DNA from: Candidatus Thorarchaeota archaeon
Lineage (GTDB): Archaea; Asgardarchaeota; Thorarchaeia; Thorarchaeales; Thorarchaeaceae
Assembly (NCBI GenBank): GCA_038893995.1
Contig: JAWAQK010000066.1
Coordinates: 1-11,828, forward strand
Direction: 5' to 3'
DNA length: 11,828 nucleotides
Program-made: the position numbers and the translations under genes
Notes under the pieces: generated by a model
What the model was told of the DNA's origin: nothing
Seen by the model: only the letters and a program-made list of their open reading frames with translations
The model's database searches: none
In this document: piece after piece, positions 1-11,828 of the stretch
Layout of the letters: each line of letters starts with the position of its first letter
How positions within the stretch are numbered: position 1 is the stretch's first letter

Positions 1-1242
1 ACTGAAATAGTCGGAAACGTCCTTGCGGACTTTCCAGTTGGTGACGACTACACGATCTATCTCTATTTCAACGACACGCTGAACAACCGGCCCGTTGAGA
101 ACGCCTCTGCAACTGCCATATGGGAGAATGGGACGGTGTTGCTCACCCACGTGGGCAATGGTGTCTATCGCTTTGGTCCGTCGGAGACCGGCATTAGTAG
201 GCTCGAGATAAGGAGTCTGCCCTACTATATCACAGTCATCATGTCGAAGGGCAACTACAGCAGAGAACAGGTGACAGTCGGCATTGTCATCCGCCCCATT
301 AGGACGCAGATCATGATACTTAGTGCACCCGTGGAGGTCTATGTGGGCCAGGAGTTCACGGTCACGATCACCTACTGGGACTTGGACCACAACTTGCCAA
401 TCGCCGGAGCGATGAACTCTACAACTGGCACTCAGCTCGTGAGAGTGGGGCGGCTTGACAAGATGTATGGCAATGGTACATACGTCTTTGGATTCATGGG
501 TAGGTCTGTACAACAGTACCTGCTCAAGATAGCCCTCAGCAAGACGGACTACTCCGTTGCAGAGGCCACACTGGTGGTCTTTGTCCTGCTGTCACCAGAA
601 CAACAGATGCTCACCACGAGCATCTTCTATGGCGCTCTCCTGATCATGGCCGCGGTGGCATTGGGGACTGCATATGTGAGAGTATGGTCGGTGCCCAAGC
701 TGCTGAGACGCATCAGGTCGATGATAAAGGCACTGGACAAGGGAGTCATACCGACAGCACCACCTGTTCGTGACAGGAGATCATTGATATTGTCCTTCAT
801 GAACGAGGATCTTCGACCCCTATCTATCGTGAAGGGAGAGGAGGACCTGGCAAGATCTACAGTCGATGTCACAGTCCTTGATGTTGATCTGCTACTCGAG
901 GAGCTTCGGGCTGTCGTTGGCCTGACAGACTCTGACATAGCGGTCCTGCGCGAGGACCTTGAGAAGATGAGACCCAGTGAACGGGCCGGCTTCATAAGCG
1001 AGGTCATCAAACAGGAGCGGGCGCGTAGAGCCCGAGAGATAGCTGAGAGTACTAGACCGCCCGAAGAGAGGGCTGCTATGGCAAGGAAACCCACGGAGGA
1101 GGAACTTGCCCTGTTCAAGGAGAAACTACTTGCTATGGGAATTGAAGAGACCGAGGCCGACCTCATGGTGGAACAGGCCAGGACTCTGACAAAGGCCGAG
1201 ATAGATGCGCTGCTGGATCAGATAGGAGGTGACAAGGATTGA
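1..1242 (+). CDS. 5'-truncated large surface protein (paralog A): last two Ig-like repeats, single TM helix, ~185-aa helical cytoplasmic tail
   Basis: Frame 1 is open from base 1 (TEIVGNVLADFPVGDDYTIYLYFNDTLNNRPVENASATAIWENGTV...), so the GTG at 136 is internal. Two ~100-aa beta-rich repeats carry Y/F-x-D...A...GNG-x-Y motifs. A hydrophobic segment (IFYGALLIMAAVALGTAYVRVW, ~622-687) is followed by basic residues, and the tail is homologous to that of the downstream ORF. Stop is TGA at 1240-1242. Confidence 0.92.
   Translation, partial: TEIVGNVLADFPVGDDYTIYLYFNDTLNNRPVENASATAIWENGTVLLTHVGNGVYRFGPSETGISRLEIRSLPYYITVIMSKGNYSREQVTVGIVIRPIRTQIMILSAPVEVYVGQEFTVTITYWDLDHNLPIAGAMNSTTGTQLVRVGRLDKMYGNGTYVFGFMGRSVQQYLLKIALSKTDYSVAEATLVVFVLLSPEQQMLTTSIFYGALLIMAAVALGTAYVRVWSVPKLLRRIRSMIKALDKGVIPTAPPVRDRRSLILSFMNEDLRPLSIVKGEEDLARSTVDVTVLDVDLLLEELRAVVGLTDSDIAVLREDLEKMRPSERAGFISEVIKQERARRAREIAESTRPPEERAAMARKPTEEELALFKEKLLAMGIEETEADLMVEQARTLTKAEIDALLDQIGGDKD
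1224..1232 (+). promoter_or_regulatory. Shine-Dalgarno site AGGAGGTGA for the giant ORF
   Basis: Perfect AGGAGGTGA 6 nt upstream of the TTG at 1239. The TTG overlaps the upstream TGA stop (TTGA). Confidence 0.85.
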
Positions 1243-4200
1243 GGCACTTGAGGACCATCCTGGTATTCGTCGGACTGCTGCTGGTGATTGGCATCCCGGC
1301 AATCGTCTGGGCCCCCTCATACGAGCAGGTCACGCCTTCTGCAGTGACTGCTCCAGGTAGCGAAGGTCCCTCACGCCTGGTCGACCTTGGTGATGGCTTC
1401 GTCGTCGAAGTGGGGCCCTCCGAAACCCTGTACAGGTACACCCTGACAGAACAGGGTCTTGTAGAATGGGTGTCTCAGTCAGACCCGCTCCTGGCCTATG
1501 AGTACGGTCGTGGCGTCCATTCACAGCAACAACTTACCATGCGCTACATTCCGGGGTCAGGCACTACTGGCACATCACTCGTCGTGCCCACTGGGGCCGG
1601 CTGGGAGGGGTACCACGTAGATGTCTCTGTGAGCGGACTGACTGAGAACCGCACATGGGTCCAGAATCCGGACTTCACGACTTCGCTCACTCCCTGGACG
1701 GCAGGGACATCAAATGCGGGTTCTTTCAGCCTACCCATAACCCGATACCTCGCAGACGGTCGTGGCCCCGGTGACGGGTGTGTCGAGTTCGAGATCGACT
1801 CCCAATCCACTTCTGCGCCGTACTTCTACGATGCCGACGATCTCGCGTACGTGAGCCAGACCCTGACCATCAATAGGGGTACCGTGGTCTGGGCCGGGTT
1901 CAGGATGGACTACTGGGCCGATACGCAGGACGACACTCATTACGGAATGGAGGGTTCGTTCGCGATCTATGTTGATATTGAGGGTCAGAGGGAGTACATC
2001 CTGGTCTTCGGCGACATAGGTGCTGAGGAGACATGGTTTACCTCGCCAATGGTAGAGGTGAACCCCTCGATATTCGCCCTGCCCTCCGATCAGTCCGTGA
2101 GCCTGCAGATTGGTCTCTGGAGCAAGGTCACAGTCGGCTACACTCCCGAGATTGGCCCCCGTGCTAGAGTAGACAACTTCGAGCTCTACCTGAAGACCAG
2201 GGCAACACCAAGCAGTGTCAGTCTCACGATGAATGGAATAGCTGTGCAGGACGGGTCCGGGTATGGTCAGGGCTCCGTGAGTCAGACGCCGGGCACACCA
2301 TGGCACATGAATCCCATACTACTGAATTTCACATGGACGCCCAGTCCAAACCCGCCAAGTCCCAATCGTGTCATAGTGGTCGAGTTTGACGTGTCCGCGA
2401 CAATGTTCGCAAGAAGGTTGAACGTTCCGACGGTGTGGGACATATCTCCCACGGCCTACGGAGAGACTCTCCGTGTCCAAAACGGCACGGATGTGTTCCA
2501 CGCCACATACTTCTACGCTGACATCCCGTTCGGCTACGAGGACATGTACTTCTTCAACGTGTCATTAGATACGGACCGCGATGTCTACACTGTTGCAAGA
2601 CCTCTGGCACCATCAACGAATCTCACGAGCGGATGGACTGGTGGCCAGCCGGGTGACGGGTTCTTGAACGTATCAGCATATCTCGTCGCCACTGGTGCTG
2701 GAAGGTACGGTTACTGGCGTATACTCAGCAGGTCTCCCAATATGATCTCCGAAATCCAGATGTTCGACAAGACGAGTCTGACCTGGAAGAGGACAGTCGA
2801 CCTACGTGCTGGTATGACCACTAGGGCAAGGGCATTTGTCGGTGCCGCCTACCAGAACTCACTGGTGAACTTCACAGTCTACGCTCCTAGCGGCGCGACC
2901 TGGACGACTCTGAGTGCGGTTGTAGATGCTCAGGGATATGCCACGACCACCACCTTCACCCTGGGCGGAGGCAACGCCACGGCTGGACAATGGATGGTTG
3001 AGGCAAGGTCGAACGACAGGGGAACAAGTGGCCACTGGACACATGCAGGATTCTTCAAGAGGACGTTCTCGGTGACACACGCATCGAGCCTGAAGATGGT
3101 GTATCCCACCGAGGCTGCACAGACTTGGGTCACCAATGTCACGTACGGTGACCTGATGCTCTTGATAGTGAGAGCGAACGACACTGACAGTGGGACACCC
3201 ATCGCTGGCGGTTCCCTTCAGTACAGCTGGATCGGTGGCAGTGGCTCATTTGATGACACAGGCACCGGCGACTACACGAAGGTATTGGACACATCTGTGA
3301 TTCAGCAATATGGCTCCGGCCAGTATGTCATCACTCTGAGCTGGTCGGCGTCCTACTATGATCCGCGCGTCGCGTATCTGACTGTCAATGTCAACTATCG
3401 TGCGACTCTGACTTCTCCACAGTATCCTGGTATCTCAGGGGCAGTCGGGTCAGGACAGTGGTTCGATGTAGTCTTCCAGAATGTCAACGGCACCGGCATA
3501 ACAGGCGCACTCATCACCTGCAACTGGACCAGCTCCTATTCTGTGAACCCTCAAGGAGGAGGTCTCTACCGGGTCAGCCTGTCAGGATCTGGTGTTCCAC
3601 TGGGCCGATACCTTCTGCAGGTCTATGCCCGCGCGCCGTTTGTTGTGACTCAATCACTATTGATCTATGTTGACGTACGTGAGATCTACAACATTGTGGA
3701 CTACTCGGCCAACCAGCTATCGATACCGGTTGGTGAATCACGATCTTTCACTCTCAGATGGACTGACGTAGAGACTGGCCTGCCAATAACTGGAGGTAGT
3801 TCCTACATCACATGTAACTGGACATCAGCTGCGCCCGTGGACTACACTGTCACTGAGAAGTCTTCAGGTCTATACGAGATCGTCATCTACACTAGTGATT
3901 CCGACCCTCTTACTGGACCGAACGAGTTTCGTAACGTGGTGTTCAATGTAAACAGACGGTACTACCAGAACCATACGTTCACGATTGGAGTACAAGTCCG
4001 TACACATAACACCCTGTTCGTGTTGGACTCTCCAGTGGAGCAGACCCCGTATGGGTCCACCATTGTGGTGCTCGTCTACTATGAAGACATTGACCTGATG
4101 CTACCTATCACTAATGGCACGGGCAATGTCCGCATCGTAGTCACTTCGTCCGGTGTCTCTGACCTACGATATCACGTCCTGCCCTCTAGTCTGGGAAACG

Positions 4201-7200
4201 GTCACTATAACATAACCATCGGTGCAAACCAGTGGGGCAACATTGGGTGGAAAGATCTGGTCATCACCGTTGAATGGACAGGACCTGTCCTGAAGTACAT
4301 GGGTAAGACTATCATGACGTCTGTGCGAGTCCTGGGAACGAATACGGACCTATTCATCGAGCAGGCTCCGCCGGTCACCTACTACCTTGAGACGGTGTCC
4401 TTCACCATAGTGTACTACGACTCGGTCAACGCGACGAGGATATCAAACAGTACGTTCCACGTCCATCTGTCGATCTCACCCATCACACCCGGTCATCCTG
4501 TGACCCAGTCAGACTTCGTCATTCATGAGATTGGCACCTCGGGGGTGTACTCTCTCTCGATCGACAGCACGAAGTTCGGAAAGACTGGAGTCTTCTCATT
4601 CTTGATTGGAGTGTCTTGGGACCTCGGAGTCGCGCCGCACTACGAGAATCGAACCCTTCTCGTGACACTGGTGATCCTCGAACGTCCCACCTACCTGGAT
4701 TACCAGATTGCCCCCTCGGCGCCATACGGCCTGCCAGTGACATTCGTGTTTGCCTACGTTGACTCATTGACCGCCACCAGGATACCACAGTCCGCATCGC
4801 TACACATTCTTATCAACGAGCCCTATGTCGTCTACAGCTACGAATACAGTGCAGTTGATCGGTCGTTCACGCTGACGATCAACACATCCAGTCTGGGTGG
4901 CGTAGGGACCTTCATCATCCATCTGAACATCACCTGGGTCGGTGCGCCATACTACGCATCTATCCCCGCGTATTCCCTCAGTGTGAGCGTTCTGTACAGG
5001 AACACACAGCTGGTGCATGAACCATTCCAGCTGCCTCAGTACGGCAGCAGTGTGGTGTTCACATTCACCTACATCGATCTGGTATCCGGCAGTCCTCAGG
5101 GAATGGTCGGCGTGCTCAGTCTGAATGAGACTCTGTACGGGTACTACTCGGTAGTCTTCCTGGGCGACGGAGTCTTTCGCGTCACGCTAGACACGTCAGG
5201 ATTTCCATCCACTGGCAGGTACACCATTCTGGCCAGGGTGGTGTACACTGGCACCAATTTTGAGAACAACGCGACCGAGACCCTTGCAATCACAGTGTTG
5301 CCAAGGTCTACTCAGATGATCTATTATAGCCCTGACCCCGCCCAGTACTTGGACTCTGTTGTCTTCGTGCTCACATACGTTGACGACTTGTCTGGCAGTG
5401 GAATCGATGGTGCATCAATCACTGTGAGTTGCAACACATCCAGTCTGCCCCTAGTCAGAGACAGCAATTACTGGGTCACACCTCTTGGGAACGGAAACTA
5501 CAGGGTCTCTGTCAGCACCGTTGCACTCGGTAGCCTTGGGACATTCATCCTCAACGTTACTGCATCCTATTCCGGTGCTCCCTTCTACCACGCGAACAGT
5601 AGGACGTTGAACGCCCGAGTGACTGAGAGAGCGACGGCCATCCTCATTGTTCGGACTCCAGGCGACACGCCGTTCCTCGAGAACGTGACTCTGAGGTTCA
5701 GATACATCGACAGCACTACAGGCGCTCTCATAATCCTGTCCAAGAGCAACATAGTCCTCAAGCACGGGCCATCCCAGTCTGTGATTGCTGCGAGTCAGTA
5801 CTACCTGCTCTACTCCGGGACCTACTACGAAATAGGGTTCAACTCCACTCTCCTGAGCCCAACGTCACTGGTCACAAACTGGGAGATTCTGATGGAGATC
5901 GATATGGGTCTCGTTGAACCGTTCTATGCTGCAAAGTCCGCAACGACTCGGGCCAACACCATAGAGCGTCCAACCACTATCACGTTCCCGCAGGTCTCGG
6001 TAGTCCCATACCTGAGTAACCTCACGATTGTCGTCAGGTACCTCGACTATCTCCGGGGCGTTGGCGTGAGCGGAGCCGATGTCTCGGTCTCCTTCTTGAA
6101 CATCTCGAATCCAGTATATCACCTGATAGTGCTACCCGGTGGAGAGTATAAGCTCATCGTACCCACTGGTCAGTTTGGCAGACCCGGAACCGTCTACTTC
6201 AGCCTGACCCTCAGCAGATCAGGACTGCCCTTCTATGCGTCCAGGTCTATCACCGATGTTCCAGCTGTTGTCAGGCCTATTCAGGCTCTCCTTGTTGTCC
6301 CAGCTGCCTCTCTCGGTGTCTTGCCTCCAGGGTATCCAATAGTCATCAATGCCACACTGTACGACATGGACTACGGCGGGGTGGTGTCGGGTGCCACTGT
6401 CACGACGACTTGGACAGCGGTGACAGGCAGACCGTACCAGGTGCATGAGATTCAACCCGGTGTGTACAGGATCACACTCGATACACAGGGACTCCTGGCT
6501 CAGAAGTATACGTTTAGTGTGATTGCTCAGAAGCAGCACTTCGCTGATGCCTCCGCACCTGTAGTCGTTCAGCCAGGTTCACAGATATTGGCCGTTGAAC
6601 CGAGAACGTTGTACTTCTCTGCGGAATGGGGTCAACTCATACATGTGGTCGTTGATGTCAGACAGTTCCAGGACAACACTCCAGTCCCCGGGGCCAGTGT
6701 CGTCCTGTCATGGGGCACTCTCAATCTGGAGTTTGCAGATCTGGGAAATGGAACATACTCCCTTGACCTAGACACATCTCTCGGCAGGGCCGGAGCATAC
6801 ACCCCGACTATCACCGTGTCAAGGGCATTCTACCAGCCCCGACAGGTCGTTGTAGACCTGTTGGTATTCAAGGCAAATGGTGTCATTATTCCCTCCGTCC
6901 CAGTCCTCAACATAGTGAGGTCGACAAGTCAGTACCTGGTGGTCTATCTCAGCGACGTCAGAAGAGGTATACCGATTTCCGATGCACTGGTGAGTGTGGA
7001 GTGGAATACTGTCACCTATCCGATGTCCTACAATGGGACTCCGGGTTATTACGCTGCACTCATCGATACAGTGGGACTCCCCATGGGTCTACACTCCGCC
7101 GTTGTGCGGGCCAGTCACGACAATCTTATGTTCCTCGACCTGACAGTCGACGTAAGTATCATCCCTGTTCCTGCCAGAGTAGGCCTCGTGGGCGGGGCGA

Positions 7201-8978
7201 TCTCGATATCTCTATACTATGGTGAGATCCTCCACCTAGCTGCAGAGTACAACGACACCTACTTCGGGGGTCACATATCTGGAGCGAATGTGACTCTCAT
7301 CATAGGTTCCTTCACAGTAGTCCTGGAAGAGGGTCTTCCAGGAGTATATGCTGGGACCTTCAATACATCTCTTCTGAATGCCCAGAGCCTGTTGGTGAGA
7401 GTGGTGGCCTCAAAGGAAGGGTACGCGCGTGTACAGTCCACCGTTCTTGTAGTGATTCGACCGTTACCCACACTGGCTACCTCCCCAATGCCTATCCAGT
7501 CTGCCTACCGTGGCGACGAACTCAGCTACCTGGTGACTCTCTATCAGACCCTGACCAACAGCACAATAGCTGGGGCCGATGTGACTGTCACATGGACTGG
7601 TACTGTCAGTGGCGTGTTGGATCTTGGCAACGGATCGTACCTGATATCTCTCGTGGCTAGCGTAGACCTGCCCAGAGCCTACACTGTGGAAGTCACCCTA
7701 GTGGTCCCAAACCACGAGATCGCAACGATAGATCTTGAACTTCTCGTGAGGCGCACTCCAGCGTACGTCGTAGGTGACACCAGTTACGATACTCCCGTGG
7801 GAAGAGCTGGTCAGGTGTCCTTCTATGTCGTGAACGCGCTCACCGGGGGTAATATCACCGGTCTCAACGGCATTGCTATCTGGGACCTGTTCGGCGAACA
7901 GCCCCTCCTCATCTCGGGAGACCTCTACATCCTGACCGTCAGCAGTGATTTCCCTATTGGAGTCTATGGCGTGGCAATCACTTTCCCGACAAGTCTGTAC
8001 GAGATTGCCACATTTGCACTGGTCGTGGAGGTGCGCACGATCAGGACTACGATCCAGATCGAGAATACGACAATACAGACATCGCCAGGTGCTGCATTCG
8101 AGGTGACGCTCCGGTATGTTGATCTCGACAGCGGCGGAGTCGGCATAGATGGCGCTACGATTGACGTCTATCTTCAGGGCACTAGTCTGATCTACTATCC
8201 TGATCGTGTCAGATATCTTGGCGACGGCATCTATGTGCTGCTCTTCCAGTCCAACGAGGGTGGAGTCTTCACAGTGACTGTCACGCTCCTGAAGGAGCGC
8301 CACGAGCCCAAGACGATCGTATTGAACGTCATCTCTGATGTGTCTCAGCAGCAGCTCCTCGTTCAGAGCCTCCTCCAGTGGGGCAGTGTTCTGATAGTCC
8401 TGGCCTCCGCAATCACGGTCCTCTGGGTGAAGTATCTGAGCGTCCCCCGCATGATCCGTATCATGAACGGAATGATCTCGACACTCTCCAAGGGCCGCAT
8501 TCCCAAGATCCCGGTCGTCCTCTCAAGGCAGAGCATTGCTGCAGGAATTGTCAACGACGAACTGAGGGCAATCGGGCTCAGCAAGTCACTTGACGACATA
8601 GACGGAGAACCGATCAAACCGATAGTTCCAGAGGTCAACGAGCTACTACAGCGCCTGGCTGAGATAACGGGCCTGGGTGATGCAGAGCTTGACGCATTCA
8701 GGGCCGACCTTGCACGGATGAAACCCAGCGAGAGACCAGGCTTCCTCCGTGAGGTCATCAGACAAGAGGAGGCTCGCAGGGCTGAGCAGCTGGCTCGTGT
8801 TGAGGCTCCCACAGTCATTCCGTCTGGTGTCACGCCTGCTGATCTGGAGGAACTGAAACTGAAGCTGAAGCGCAAGGGTATTGCGCCAGAGGAGATAGAG
8901 CTCATCCTGGAGCACGCAAAGAGTCTGTCGAGGGCTGACCTCGAGGCTCTACTTGATAGCCTTGGAATAGACCTGTAG
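1239..8978 (+). CDS. Giant (2579 aa) type I membrane surface glycoprotein (paralog B): signal peptide, CBM-like head, ~17 Ig-like repeats, TM helix, cytoplasmic helical tail
   Basis: Uninterrupted 7.7-kb ORF with a strong SD. N-terminus MRHLRTILVFVGLLLVIGIPAIVWA has a basic n-region, an h-region and a V-x-A end. Periodic motifs YxD..G..I.GA / (L)GNG.Y / LDT / R.T.L recur. C-terminal hydrophobic helix LLQWGSVLIVLASAITVLWVKYL (~8370-8438) is followed by a charged helical tail. Confidence 0.95.
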   Translation: MRHLRTILVFVGLLLVIGIPAIVWAPSYEQVTPSAVTAPGSEGPSRLVDLGDGFVVEVGPSETLYRYTLTEQGLVEWVSQSDPLLAYEYGRGVHSQQQLTMRYIPGSGTTGTSLVVPTGAGWEGYHVDVSVSGLTENRTWVQNPDFTTSLTPWTAGTSNAGSFSLPITRYLADGRGPGDGCVEFEIDSQSTSAPYFYDADDLAYVSQTLTINRGTVVWAGFRMDYWADTQDDTHYGMEGSFAIYVDIEGQREYILVFGDIGAEETWFTSPMVEVNPSIFALPSDQSVSLQIGLWSKVTVGYTPEIGPRARVDNFELYLKTRATPSSVSLTMNGIAVQDGSGYGQGSVSQTPGTPWHMNPILLNFTWTPSPNPPSPNRVIVVEFDVSATMFARRLNVPTVWDISPTAYGETLRVQNGTDVFHATYFYADIPFGYEDMYFFNVSLDTDRDVYTVARPLAPSTNLTSGWTGGQPGDGFLNVSAYLVATGAGRYGYWRILSRSPNMISEIQMFDKTSLTWKRTVDLRAGMTTRARAFVGAAYQNSLVNFTVYAPSGATWTTLSAVVDAQGYATTTTFTLGGGNATAGQWMVEARSNDRGTSGHWTHAGFFKRTFSVTHASSLKMVYPTEAAQTWVTNVTYGDLMLLIVRANDTDSGTPIAGGSLQYSWIGGSGSFDDTGTGDYTKVLDTSVIQQYGSGQYVITLSWSASYYDPRVAYLTVNVNYRATLTSPQYPGISGAVGSGQWFDVVFQNVNGTGITGALITCNWTSSYSVNPQGGGLYRVSLSGSGVPLGRYLLQVYARAPFVVTQSLLIYVDVREIYNIVDYSANQLSIPVGESRSFTLRWTDVETGLPITGGSSYITCNWTSAAPVDYTVTEKSSGLYEIVIYTSDSDPLTGPNEFRNVVFNVNRRYYQNHTFTIGVQVRTHNTLFVLDSPVEQTPYGSTIVVLVYYEDIDLMLPITNGTGNVRIVVTSSGVSDLRYHVLPSSLGNGHYNITIGANQWGNIGWKDLVITVEWTGPVLKYMGKTIMTSVRVLGTNTDLFIEQAPPVTYYLETVSFTIVYYDSVNATRISNSTFHVHLSISPITPGHPVTQSDFVIHEIGTSGVYSLSIDSTKFGKTGVFSFLIGVSWDLGVAPHYENRTLLVTLVILERPTYLDYQIAPSAPYGLPVTFVFAYVDSLTATRIPQSASLHILINEPYVVYSYEYSAVDRSFTLTINTSSLGGVGTFIIHLNITWVGAPYYASIPAYSLSVSVLYRNTQLVHEPFQLPQYGSSVVFTFTYIDLVSGSPQGMVGVLSLNETLYGYYSVVFLGDGVFRVTLDTSGFPSTGRYTILARVVYTGTNFENNATETLAITVLPRSTQMIYYSPDPAQYLDSVVFVLTYVDDLSGSGIDGASITVSCNTSSLPLVRDSNYWVTPLGNGNYRVSVSTVALGSLGTFILNVTASYSGAPFYHANSRTLNARVTERATAILIVRTPGDTPFLENVTLRFRYIDSTTGALIILSKSNIVLKHGPSQSVIAASQYYLLYSGTYYEIGFNSTLLSPTSLVTNWEILMEIDMGLVEPFYAAKSATTRANTIERPTTITFPQVSVVPYLSNLTIVVRYLDYLRGVGVSGADVSVSFLNISNPVYHLIVLPGGEYKLIVPTGQFGRPGTVYFSLTLSRSGLPFYASRSITDVPAVVRPIQALLVVPAASLGVLPPGYPIVINATLYDMDYGGVVSGATVTTTWTAVTGRPYQVHEIQPGVYRITLDTQGLLAQKYTFSVIAQKQHFADASAPVVVQPGSQILAVEPRTLYFSAEWGQLIHVVVDVRQFQDNTPVPGASVVLSWGTLNLEFADLGNGTYSLDLDTSLGRAGAYTPTITVSRAFYQPRQVVVDLLVFKANGVIIPSVPVLNIVRSTSQYLVVYLSDVRRGIPISDALVSVEWNTVTYPMSYNGTPGYYAALIDTVGLPMGLHSAVVRASHDNLMFLDLTVDVSIIPVPARVGLVGGAISISLYYGEILHLAAEYNDTYFGGHISGANVTLIIGSFTVVLEEGLPGVYAGTFNTSLLNAQSLLVRVVASKEGYARVQSTVLVVIRPLPTLATSPMPIQSAYRGDELSYLVTLYQTLTNSTIAGADVTVTWTGTVSGVLDLGNGSYLISLVASVDLPRAYTVEVTLVVPNHEIATIDLELLVRRTPAYVVGDTSYDTPVGRAGQVSFYVVNALTGGNITGLNGIAIWDLFGEQPLLISGDLYILTVSSDFPIGVYGVAITFPTSLYEIATFALVVEVRTIRTTIQIENTTIQTSPGAAFEVTLRYVDLDSGGVGIDGATIDVYLQGTSLIYYPDRVRYLGDGIYVLLFQSNEGGVFTVTVTLLKERHEPKTIVLNVISDVSQQQLLVQSLLQWGSVLIVLASAITVLWVKYLSVPRMIRIMNGMISTLSKGRIPKIPVVLSRQSIAAGIVNDELRAIGLSKSLDDIDGEPIKPIVPEVNELLQRLAEITGLGDAELDAFRADLARMKPSERPGFLREVIRQEEARRAEQLARVEAPTVIPSGVTPADLEELKLKLKRKGIAPEEIELILEHAKSLSRADLEALLDSLGIDL
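1656..2195 (+). other. Putative galactose-binding-like / CBM4-9-type jelly-roll domain in the head of paralog B
   Basis: Begins WVQNPDFTTSLTPW (N-x-x-F...W pattern typical of CBM4/9/16/22 starts) and ends ARVDNFELYLK (x-D-[DN]-hydrophobic-x-L terminal strand). Aromatic- and Asp-rich in between. Pattern recognition only. Confidence 0.5.
3072..8340 (+). repeat. Protein-level tandem array of ~17 degenerate ~95-115-aa Ig-like beta-sandwich repeats
   Basis: Hand-delineated units such as ...YGSTIVVLVYYEDIDLMLPITNG...LGNGHY..., ...YLDSVVFVLTYVDDLSGSGIDGASITV...LGNGNY..., ...DNTPVPGASVVLSW...DLGNGTYSLDLDTS..., ...NSTIAGADVTVTW...DLGNGSY.... Average ~103 aa. No obvious DNA-level identity between units. 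Confidence 0.8.
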
Positions 8979-8989
8979 ATGACGATAGT

Positions 8990-9019
8990 AGGAGGTGTGG
9001 GCTGCGGCCCAGACCTCCT
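8990..9019. terminator. GC-rich inverted repeat in the 58-bp gap between convergent genes (candidate bidirectional terminator or 3'-end stabiliser)
   Basis: AGGAGGT-G-TGGGC-[TGCG]-GCCCA-G-ACCTCCT gives a 7-bp plus 5-bp stem with one mismatch and a 4-nt loop. There is no flanking T-tract, so the function is inferred from position. Confidence 0.55.
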
Positions 9020-9036
9020 GCGACCAAACAGGCGTT

Positions 9037-10099: not shown

Positions 10100-11152
10100 T
10101 TAATCTTGCTGGGTTTTCTGGGCGGGTGTACATGTCTTCCTAGGCAGCATTGACAATGCGACAAACCCGACTGCCACGCTGAACCACAGGGTCACCGACC
10201 TTATGATGAGTACTGCCGCGAATGCTGAGGCCCTGGCAATGCCAAGTACTCTCTCAAGTACGGCCTGTGCAAATCCCTCGTATCCACCGAGTCCCCCCGG
10301 CAGAAACACAAGGACTGCACCAACTACTGATGCCCCTGCATGAACGAATGTGGCCTGTGCAAGCAACACGAGTGATTCTGAAGACAGCGAGGGAGTCCCC
10401 AATCCCGTAAGCACACTCAGTAGGAGCCAGAGCTCCACACACTCGACGAACCATCCCGGGATGCTTATCCCCGTAGTCCAGATGAGTGACCTCGGGGTGA
10501 GGGTCCTGACCATTGTGTCTTCGACGTGGTCGCAGCTGTCGCTGAACCTATTGAGACCTCGTGACTTGACCAGTCTTCTGACGATCTTCTGGTAGAACTC
10601 TCGTTTCCCAAGCACGATGGCAGCCAGAAGGACAAGCGCTCCCACAATCGCCATGAGCACGAGTTCGTTTCCTTGACTGAGCCCTCCGATGTAGCCGACT
10701 GCTGCGAGGACGACAAGCGCCAGCATGTCAGTGAGCCTCTCGGAGAGGACAATTGGTGAGGTCTTGGCAATCGGTGCGCCAGTCAGGTCCTTGCAGAATA
10801 TTCCCTTCACCATCTCCCCCATCTTTCCCGGTGTTGCTGTCAGCGTGAAACCTGCTAGAAACACCTTGAACGAGTCTGAAGGTCGGATAGAGACACCCAC
10901 CTTGCCGAGGAAGTACTGCCACTTCCCGAAACGGATCAGATAGTTCGTGAATGACAAGACCATCATGGTCGGTAGTATCCACATGGGGACTGTGCTCAGG
11001 GCAGAAAGGACATCCTCTATCTTCGCGTAGAGGGCCAATACGAGGTATACCACTATGGCCAGCGCAGCCACCAGTGCTAGCCTACGCAGAGTAAGCATAC
11101 GCCCGGCATGTTCCCCGGCCCCTGTCTCCTGATCGCTTGCTCTCACAGACAT
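10100..11152 (-). CDS. UPF0104 / lysylphosphatidylglycerol-synthase TM-domain (flippase-like, AglD2/YbhN family) membrane protein, ~350 aa
   Basis: Multiple TM helices and family motifs RFGKWQYFL, TPGKMGEMVK, ERLTD, PGGLGGYEG, R-x-x-T-x-W. I prefer the ATG at 11152 (GAGG 4 nt upstream, 10-nt overlap with the PHP gene end) over 11284, which overlaps the PHP gene by ~140 nt. ATG 11098 is an alternative. Confidence 0.88.
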   Translation of the reverse strand: MSVRASDQETGAGEHAGRMLTLRRLALVAALAIVVYLVLALYAKIEDVLSALSTVPMWILPTMMVLSFTNYLIRFGKWQYFLGKVGVSIRPSDSFKVFLAGFTLTATPGKMGEMVKGIFCKDLTGAPIAKTSPIVLSERLTDMLALVVLAAVGYIGGLSQGNELVLMAIVGALVLLAAIVLGKREFYQKIVRRLVKSRGLNRFSDSCDHVEDTMVRTLTPRSLIWTTGISIPGWFVECVELWLLLSVLTGLGTPSLSSESLVLLAQATFVHAGASVVGAVLVFLPGGLGGYEGFAQAVLERVLGIARASAFAAVLIIRSVTLWFSVAVGFVALSMLPRKTCTPAQKTQQD

Positions 11153-11802
11153 AGTTTCCTCGCCCTCTGCCAAGCCATTGTAGGGAGTTGCCACAGGAAT
11201 AGCGACGAGTGTCCAGAGATGATGGTCTCTCCTCTCCTCAGGCGGTCGAATATACAGTCTGCAGAACTGATATCGGCGAGCCATGTCTTTGCATGTCCGA
11301 GTTCCAGAAAGCTGTGTGAGTCACTCCCTGCTGTCATTGGTTTCTCGAGTCGTCGTGCAAGATTCTGCGCCCAGCTGTTAAACACTGGAAGTATGCATCT
11401 CGAGTTGATCCCCTCTATGAGGTCAATGTGCCTCCTGATGAGCGCATCTGGCAACGATCTTCTCATCGCGGTGTGCTTTCTCATGGGGTCCCTCGGGTGA
11501 GGCAGGACGGTTATCCCAGACTGTTCGTGAATTGCCTCGGCAGTCTCCTCAAAGCTGCTACGTCTTATCGGGTCACTGACGAATAGTCCGATCAGCTCTC
11601 CAAAGTCCGTCGTCATGAACTCGCAGCCGTTGATGATGTAGATGTCGTCGCTGATGATTGGTCTAGTCAGCGATGGCGTCCCATGGTCTGTGAGTGCAAT
11701 CCCTGAGAGTCCCCTCCGTCTGGCCCATCTTGGGATGTCTCTTGGCCTCATGAGGCCATCTTTCGAGTGGTGACTGTGGGTATGCAGGTCGAATGCTGAC
11801 AT
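11143..11802 (-). CDS. PHP-domain metal-dependent phosphoesterase, ~219 aa
   Basis: PHP motifs DLHTHS..S.DG, ALTDHG, GCE, HP, IEGIN and GSDSH. An in-frame TAG at 11826-11824 shows the gene is complete. Start is ATG 11802 or GTG 11823/11820. Confidence 0.92.
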   Translation of the reverse strand: MSAFDLHTHSHHSKDGLMRPRDIPRWARRRGLSGIALTDHGTPSLTRPIISDDIYIINGCEFMTTDFGELIGLFVSDPIRRSSFEETAEAIHEQSGITVLPHPRDPMRKHTAMRRSLPDALIRRHIDLIEGINSRCILPVFNSWAQNLARRLEKPMTAGSDSHSFLELGHAKTWLADISSADCIFDRLRRGETIISGHSSLFLWQLPTMAWQRARKLCL

Positions 11803-11828
11803 CCTGGTCGTCCCGGTCACCACCTATG

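Follow-up and report, generated by a model that had tools for sequence, protein, structure and literature searches.

A conserved pair of overlapping genes in Thorarchaeota encodes giant predicted surface proteins with long, putatively cytoplasmic tails

Do two giant genes that lie end to end and share four bases encode independent proteins of the cell surface, or two parts of one structure that is tied to the cell interior? This question is raised by genes A and B in the window analysed here (the whole stretch of DNA, comprising the first 11,828 bases of contig C66), which comes from a 2.33 Mb genome that is 91% complete and that protein matches assign to the Thorarchaeota, within the Asgard archaea. 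Gene B is complete, a 2,579-amino acid (aa) frame at 1239-8978 with a TTG start at 1239. Gene A is open at its 5' end, its frame (+1) running from the first base of the contig to a TGA at 1240-1242; this 3' fragment (1-1242) has 413 codons plus the stop and covers module 16 in part, module 17, a membrane helix and the tail. Both genes and all their features given below are on the forward strand of the window unless another contig is named. A preliminary description of the window had reported this two-gene layout, which stands except that the window holds just the C-terminal seventh of A. Our answer to the question, which we consider probable, is that A and B tie a paired surface structure to the cell interior as rods built as one unit; co-assembly, glycan binding and adaptor docking are the inferred parts of this answer.

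The A/B junction reads GGAGGTGAcaaggaTTGA, in which the start of B and the stop of A overlap by four bases: within the TTGA at 1239-1242, the TTG of B (1239-1241) overlaps the TGA of A (1240-1242). A Shine-Dalgarno-like sequence for B, GGAGGTGA, lies at 1225-1232 within the codons of A's conserved C-terminal I-G-G, and its GGAGG (1225-1229) is 9 nt ahead of the TTG start. The TTGA overlap with its Shine-Dalgarno sequence had been noted in the preliminary description, and both are kept in all 19 family junctions examined, which span ~16 genera and have the form NTGA (16 of 19) or TAATG (three of 19). Two intact contigs of other Thorarchaeota also carry A and B with a 4-nt overlap. As GGAGG always falls within the codons of A's conserved (I/L)-G-G in the 19 junctions, A's last residues double as the ribosome-binding site of B. 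A tails always end in (I/L)GG followed by 2-4 acidic residues, and B tails end in SLGI(D/S)L without the GG. The C-terminal peptide of A may be under as much constraint from its nucleotide sequence as from its protein sequence. We propose that the overlap, with a Shine-Dalgarno sequence in A's last codons, would make A and B in fixed proportion.

The rest of A was found on contig C53, where an open frame of 2,476 aa on the minus strand runs off the contig's start and supplies the remaining ~2,460 codons (C53 3 to ~7379-7415, minus strand). This frame is 35% identical to B across ~2,000 collinear residues. The ends of C53 and C66 share no exact overlap; we joined them because both are collinear with one intact A ortholog (GCA_024275415.1, locus L005), with ~12-14 codons unassembled between the contigs. 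A start at GTG 7379 or TTG 7385 of C53, downstream of a GGAGG, is probable. Retrieval of the upstream sequence, a check that had been suggested with the first account of the pair, gives a full-length A of ~2,885 aa with 17 modules, as in B, and intact orthologs have 2,883-2,884 aa. The A fragment in the window matches the last 430 residues of B with 30% identity over 420 columns (E 5e-48), and A and B are whole-length paralogs of ~280-310 kDa each.

Directly upstream of A on C53 (locus L023, 7758-9995, minus strand) is a gene whose 745-aa product has a signal peptide, a membrane helix at its C-terminus and a HETMHAIGIMH motif (HExxHxxGxxH, metzincin-like); no Pfam match was found for it. This putative membrane-anchored extracellular metalloprotease could process surface proteins. 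Its place beside A is not kept in the relative that carries the intact ortholog, and synteny upstream of A-B is not kept in this genome.

To ask how widely the pair occurs, we surveyed the family to which this genome belongs with a profile of the tail, taking the 32 genomes that are at least 92% complete as a high-quality set. The profile matched in 81 of the 85 genomes of the family and in a sister family. Two short-tail genes were scored as abutting if they lie on the same strand at a spacing equal to the length of the downstream one; by this measure an A-then-B pair is present in 20 of the 32 high-quality genomes. In most of the others, as here, contig ends interrupt the two short-tail genes; one genome (G331) has one short-tail gene only and another (G348) has none. 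In a maximum-likelihood tree of the tails, all 16 upstream copies formed one clade together with copies 1 and 3 of genome G370 (100/99), all 16 downstream copies formed another together with copies 2 and 4 of G370 (100/100), and the same sister pairs recur inside the A clade and the B clade. The proposal that A and B subtypes form adjacent pairs is thereby borne out, with upstream and downstream tails in two distinct clades and A always ahead of B. Two clades with matching inner groupings indicate that the duplication is older than the family, that the order A-then-B was never reversed and that the genes were co-inherited. The A-B pair is a conserved unit, and it is likely a core feature of this Thorarchaeota family, anciently duplicated and translationally coupled.

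In G370 the pair occurs twice in tandem as A-B-A'-B' (contig C22, 5919-30111). Since each copy falls in its proper A or B clade, the whole two-gene unit was recently duplicated there.

We then examined the architecture of the two proteins. B begins with an N-terminal signal or anchor segment (residues 1-28, 1239-1322), with a predicted cleavage after V-W-A, followed by a head (residues 29-625, 1323-3113) and a stalk (residues 626-2375, 3114-8363). Using an iterated module profile, we counted 17 contiguous modules of ~105 aa in the B stalk, and in A 14 modules on C53, one module-sized gap and two on C66, which again makes 17, the number of ectodomain units first proposed. The two A modules in the window (1-618) are module 16 (residues 1-99, incomplete at the contig end) and module 17 (residues 98-206). 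The module profile matches the Ig-like (immunoglobulin-like) domains of FdeC (4e9l) with an E of 5.8e-7 and other beta-sandwiches more weakly, and precomputed annotations of orthologs hold Invasin_D3, MG2 or CarboxypepD_reg matches. Neither B nor the A fragment has a match above the curated cut-offs in Pfam or NCBIfam.

The heads of A and B are 39-40% identical, and the A head bears an extra insert of ~295 aa, recognised by Pfam (E 8e-38) as NHL repeats of a six-bladed propeller. B residues 36-335 were modelled with AlphaFold, and the model is confident at residues ~136-325 (1644-2213). These residues take the shape of a jelly roll, to which the closest structures in the PDB are carbohydrate-binding modules (CBMs): TmCBM61 (Foldseek E 4.5e-6), CBM11, CBM4, CBM22 and CBM27. 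We read both proteins as starting with a signal peptide and as having a CBM-like jelly roll in the distal head. Full-length B orthologs measure 2,528-2,600 aa only, and the lengths of untruncated A orthologs in the family cluster at about 2,618-2,649 aa and at about 2,882-2,916 aa. We read these two classes as A without and with the NHL insert, which was verified here and in one ortholog (precomputed Pfam).

Both proteins have a single hydrophobic helix near the C-terminus (A residues 203-226, 607-678; B residues 2377-2402, 8367-8444), and B also has the N-terminal one. The B ectodomain carries 39 N-x-S/T sequons in comparison to 16.9 ± 3.6 in shuffled sequences, and the tail carries none. The 30 residues that follow the B helix have a net charge of +6, and lysine makes up 1.0% of B outside and 5.6% inside. 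These data fit A and B being type I membrane glycoproteins with the tail inside the cell. The excess of sequons on one side, their lack on the other and the positive-inside charge agree with the intracellular tail of the preliminary description, whose shared plan of Ig repeats, transmembrane helix, basic juxtamembrane part and helical tail of ~180 aa is present in both proteins.

The tails comprise 187 aa in A (residues 227-413, 679-1239), ending GGDKD, and 177 aa in B (residues 2403-2579, 8445-8975), ending GIDL. A structural model of the tail has nine helices with a mean pLDDT (per-residue confidence score) of 84, and the relative placement of its parts is uncertain (pTM, the score for overall topology, 0.38). 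An alignment of 22 tails resolves four parts: a juxtamembrane motif, a first helical segment, a variable linker and a terminal helical segment (A 1093-1239; B 8832-8975). The juxtamembrane part is basic, with the consensus WSVPK.LR.IN.MIK.L.KGKIPKP..SRQ, and the first helical segment closes with a nearly invariant helix, KMKPSERAGF.KEVI.QE..RRA. The A tail follows this order, with a W-S-VP-K-x-L-R-x-I..K-G-x-IP motif, a segment with a long K-M-R-P-SERAGF helix, the linker and a terminal segment that ends ..DQIGGDKD.

To compare the conservation of these parts, we used the mean pairwise identity among 21 full-length B orthologs. The first and the terminal helical segments are 72% and 68% identical, respectively, and are the best-conserved parts scored in B. 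The other values were 49% for the juxtamembrane motif, 47% for the ectodomain overall, 38% for the membrane helix, 36-44% for the five membrane-proximal modules and 31% for the linker. The distal modules are better conserved than the membrane-proximal ones.

Among 1.84 billion proteins, 110 cluster representatives match the tail, which takes a C-terminal position in full-length giants, some of more than 5,000 aa. Searches for a known relative of the tail gave a best Foldseek E of 0.22 against the PDB and, in a wide VIA-align comparison, a best Z of 6.8 over 62 residues, which is at noise level for helical models. The best PDB sequence match of the tail profile, at E 0.0076, was an unrelated repressor and was set aside, and Pfam searches of the 22 tails gave only a sub-threshold RecX_HTH1 match in 6 of 22. 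With nothing above threshold in Pfam, NCBIfam, PDB sequences or folds, the tail lies outside the characterised anchor families, as the preliminary description had supposed, and a literature search did not find a description of the A/B protein family. An internal duplication within the tail was also considered; hhalign aligned 21 columns of the first and the terminal helical segment at a probability of 74%, and the register differed from that proposed.

The same tail occurs in genes that are not part of an A-B pair. Each good genome has at least one gene, here called C-type, that combines this tail with a long acidic linker. In this genome it is a singleton encoding 4,213 aa (C7:34016-46654), and elsewhere it is either a singleton of about 5,000 aa or a pair of about 4,100 and 3,170 aa. 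A fourth clade of tails (x; proteins of 3,094-4,618 aa), sister to B, consists of singletons and is absent here. Since C-type and x relatives stand alone, the tail itself needs no paired paralog. Strict coupling and a fixed stalk are what is peculiar to A-B.

We next sought proteins that could meet the tail inside the cell. Outside the Thorarchaeota, the tail profile covers only the membrane helix and ~60 juxtamembrane residues, to which family f14 adds the first helical segment; beyond this Thorarchaeota family and the sister family, in the genomes examined, the two helical segments that the A/B tail adds are present only in part, in f14. The shared part contains a W-x-VP..K/R..I..K..G motif directly after the membrane helix, and this motif is present in the A/B tails. 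In a complete genome (G304), the gene right after a protein of this juxtamembrane type encodes a 363-aa longin-type protein without a Pfam match, hereafter the adaptor. Of 400 Asgard genomes, 313 have a member of the adaptor family, among them every one of the 85 genomes of the family studied here. The adaptor is missing or rare in five families (f8, f10, f11, f13 and f30), from which the tail match is also absent. In surface-protein/longin-adaptor/Arf-like GTPase cassettes of Asgard archaea, the surface protein has the same juxtamembrane motif directly after its membrane helix as A and B do. A publication on such cassettes was not found in a literature search.

This genome has three clear adaptor homologs and one weak match. 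They include one with a C-terminal winged helix (C14:12135-13265), one split between the ends of C1 and C24, and one (C7:24364-25464) with a coiled-coil protein and an Arf-like GTPase as neighbours, at a distance of 8.6 kb from the C-type giant, which bears the same three-part tail. Among the matches listed (positions were available for the best 150 of 984), the adaptor lies 9-18 kb from a C-type giant, mostly divergently, in at least 10 genomes of several genera.

Two adaptor loci of this genome were inspected further. On C14 (locus L025, 3136-12430), four closely spaced genes encode, in this order, a 386-aa adaptor, a 2,162-aa surface protein, an N-terminally extended Arf-like GTPase (301 aa) and a coiled-coil protein of 188 aa. 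The helix of the surface protein is followed by the short juxtamembrane motif W-K-VP...K.I......I..G and then by a long tail, acidic and disordered. On C7 (locus L024, 2775-7995), a one-strand cassette encodes a coiled-coil protein, a 283-aa Arf-like GTPase and a 370-aa adaptor, and the gene that diverges from it encodes a protein of 876 aa, which has a CarboxypepD_reg domain and, at the C-terminus, a match of EAP30/Vps36 type (ESCRT-II type winged helix). This cassette is 8.6 kb upstream of the C-type giant. A 388-aa protein upstream of A-B in a relative was considered as an adaptor and rejected.

Given these features, we propose the following working of the pair. A and B would enter the membrane next to each other and stand out from it as glycosylated rods, each about 60-70 nm long at full extension. 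Together the rods would build a single surface structure, either a coat or fibres whose tips bind sugars, and the tails would tie it to cytoplasmic partners. The basic juxtamembrane motif would probably dock the longin/winged-helix adaptor, since the same kind of motif sits beside longin/winged-helix adaptors and Arf-like GTPases across Asgard archaea. The two Thorarchaeota-specific acidic helical segments would bind another partner inside the cell. The argument that A and B share a structure is indirect and draws on coupled translation, strict co-inheritance and an equal, fixed number of modules in both proteins, compared with the more than 2-fold variation among the singleton relatives.

Several observations weigh against this proposal. 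The Ig-like fold of the modules is predicted from sequence profiles, and the tail relatives occur as singletons (C-type proteins of ~4,200-5,600 aa and the x type). The tails of A and B are not charge-complementary; both have the same profile, basic near the membrane and acidic further on. In a sister-family genome (G311), the two genes of the pair do not overlap, and in the tree their tails are placed in neither the A nor the B clade. Unlike the cassettes, in which the adaptor and the GTPase are adjacent, A-B has neither alongside: no adaptor was found beside the pair in the window or on C53, and among the best 150 of 984 adaptor matches, none shares the A-B contig in at least 13 relatives.

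Some of these observations would also be expected if A and B were independent adhesins or receptors, adjacent only through tandem duplication and a shared promoter and possibly binding different ligands with their NHL and NHL-free heads. Singleton relatives that bear the same tail and the lack of charge complementarity favor such independence, as does an NHL propeller in the A head only, which by length is present in about two thirds of intact family pairs. However, independent proteins need not retain gene order, overlap and Shine-Dalgarno sequence at all 19 junctions examined, nor need both keep 17 modules where singleton relatives range from ~2,300 to ~6,500 aa, and the agreement between the inner groupings of the A and B clades also speaks against independence. 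We regard independence as possible but rather unlikely, and continue to favor A and B as rods of a single surface structure.

The closest published analogue of A/B is PySLP of Pyrobaculum arsenaticum, a 292 kDa protein with 19 Ig-like domains and a C-terminal membrane helix that forms hexameric pillars, has homologs in Thermoproteota, and has a short, highly basic cytoplasmic tail ending in lysine (bioRxiv 10.64898/2026.08.21.746120). The likeness is one of overall plan: a glycoprotein of ~290 kDa with a signal peptide, a non-canonical distal region, a run of Ig domains and one C-terminal helix. Further marks of the PySLP type are a membrane-proximal beta-hairpin that is conserved and a hexagonal lattice on cells. 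By this analogy, the pair could be a true paracrystalline S-layer of the colossal PySLP type, with heads and distal modules as the lattice, proximal modules as pillars and the tail as an elaborated anchor. The common plan (bioRxiv 10.64898/2026.08.21.746120), the presence of the pair in nearly every genome of the family and the better conservation of the distal modules would all suit a lattice. In contrast to the single, hexameric PySLP-like protein with its short basic tail ending in lysine, A and B are two coupled paralogs with folded tails of 177-187 aa that contain their best-conserved segments; the contrast drawn in the preliminary description with surface proteins that end soon after their anchor extends to the published colossal S-layer proteins. 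In addition, Lokiarchaeum ossiferum, the sole Asgard archaeon imaged in detail, has unordered complex surface proteins and no ordered S-layer (PMC9834061), which leaves room for fibres rather than a lattice. We consider an S-layer of this type distinctly unlikely, and fibres or a coat built from A and B together remain our preferred description.

Other known systems resemble A/B in part. Big-domain adhesins of the intimin/invasin/FdeC type share the head-stalk-anchor plan, tandem Ig-like modules (those of FdeC being the ones matched above) and a lectin-like distal head. These bacterial proteins have an outer-membrane barrel or secretion-system plug and no cytoplasmic domain, whereas A and B have a single C-proximal helix and a tail of ~180 aa in a single-membrane archaeon. 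With the alpha and beta chains of integrins, which are obligate non-covalent heterodimers, and with other paired type I adhesion receptors of eukaryotes, A and B have in common that there are two chains, each crossing the membrane once, with a propeller in one of the heads, large glycosylated ectodomains and tails proposed as docking sites for adaptors. Unlike the integrin chains, A and B are paralogs of each other, and their tails are far longer and unrelated. Pfam searches of A and B did not find the integrin domains VWA/beta-I or FG-GAP, only the NHL repeats in the A head; as no defining domain is present, we rejected an integrin identity and use integrins as an analogy only. The two-gene S-layer operon of Sulfolobales encodes SlaA and SlaB, which are unrelated and of which only SlaB is membrane-anchored. 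There, as proposed for A/B, two co-transcribed genes lead to one envelope structure, but A and B are paralogs and both are anchored. Together, these comparisons place A and B, as predicted from their sequences, among the giant archaeal Ig-repeat surface proteins, with the pairing and a novel cytoplasmic domain as the new elements, and a receptor-like architecture is supported.

The pair is found in nearly every genome of one large Asgard family, where A and B rank with the largest genes, and the segments conserved best lie on the cytoplasmic side. A and B are named candidates for the surface coat or fibres of Thorarchaeota, and candidates for a physical link between cell surface and interior, possibly by way of eukaryote-like longin and Arf-like GTPase proteins. 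A stronger version of this link, that A, B and C-type proteins are true transmembrane couplers in which the motif recruits the adaptor and then the Arf-like GTPase while the acidic segments bind a second partner, we regard as unlikely. If it were true, Thorarchaeota would couple glycan-binding surface fibres to a eukaryote-like GTPase system, and the logic of adhesion receptors would exist in archaeal kin of eukaryotes, evolved independently of integrins and cadherins.

The remainder of the window, downstream of B, encodes a tyrosyl-tRNA synthetase (tyrS), a flippase-like LPG_synthase_TM protein and a PHP-domain protein, all on the opposite strand. Rfam and tRNA scans of the window found no RNA genes. 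The 58-nt spacer between the convergent B and tyrS genes (8979-9036) contains a stable hairpin (8988-9021) of 14 pairs (-30.8 kcal/mol, z -4.9 in comparison to shuffled sequences) that is not followed by a T-run; it may end or stabilise the transcripts of both genes. The longest frames of the flippase-like gene (10100-11284) and the PHP gene (11143-11823), both on the minus strand, overlap by 142 nt. In a relative, the flippase-like protein has 343 aa, and its gene and the PHP gene share just 8 nt; given this shorter version, the start of the flippase-like gene here is probably a later codon near 11131.

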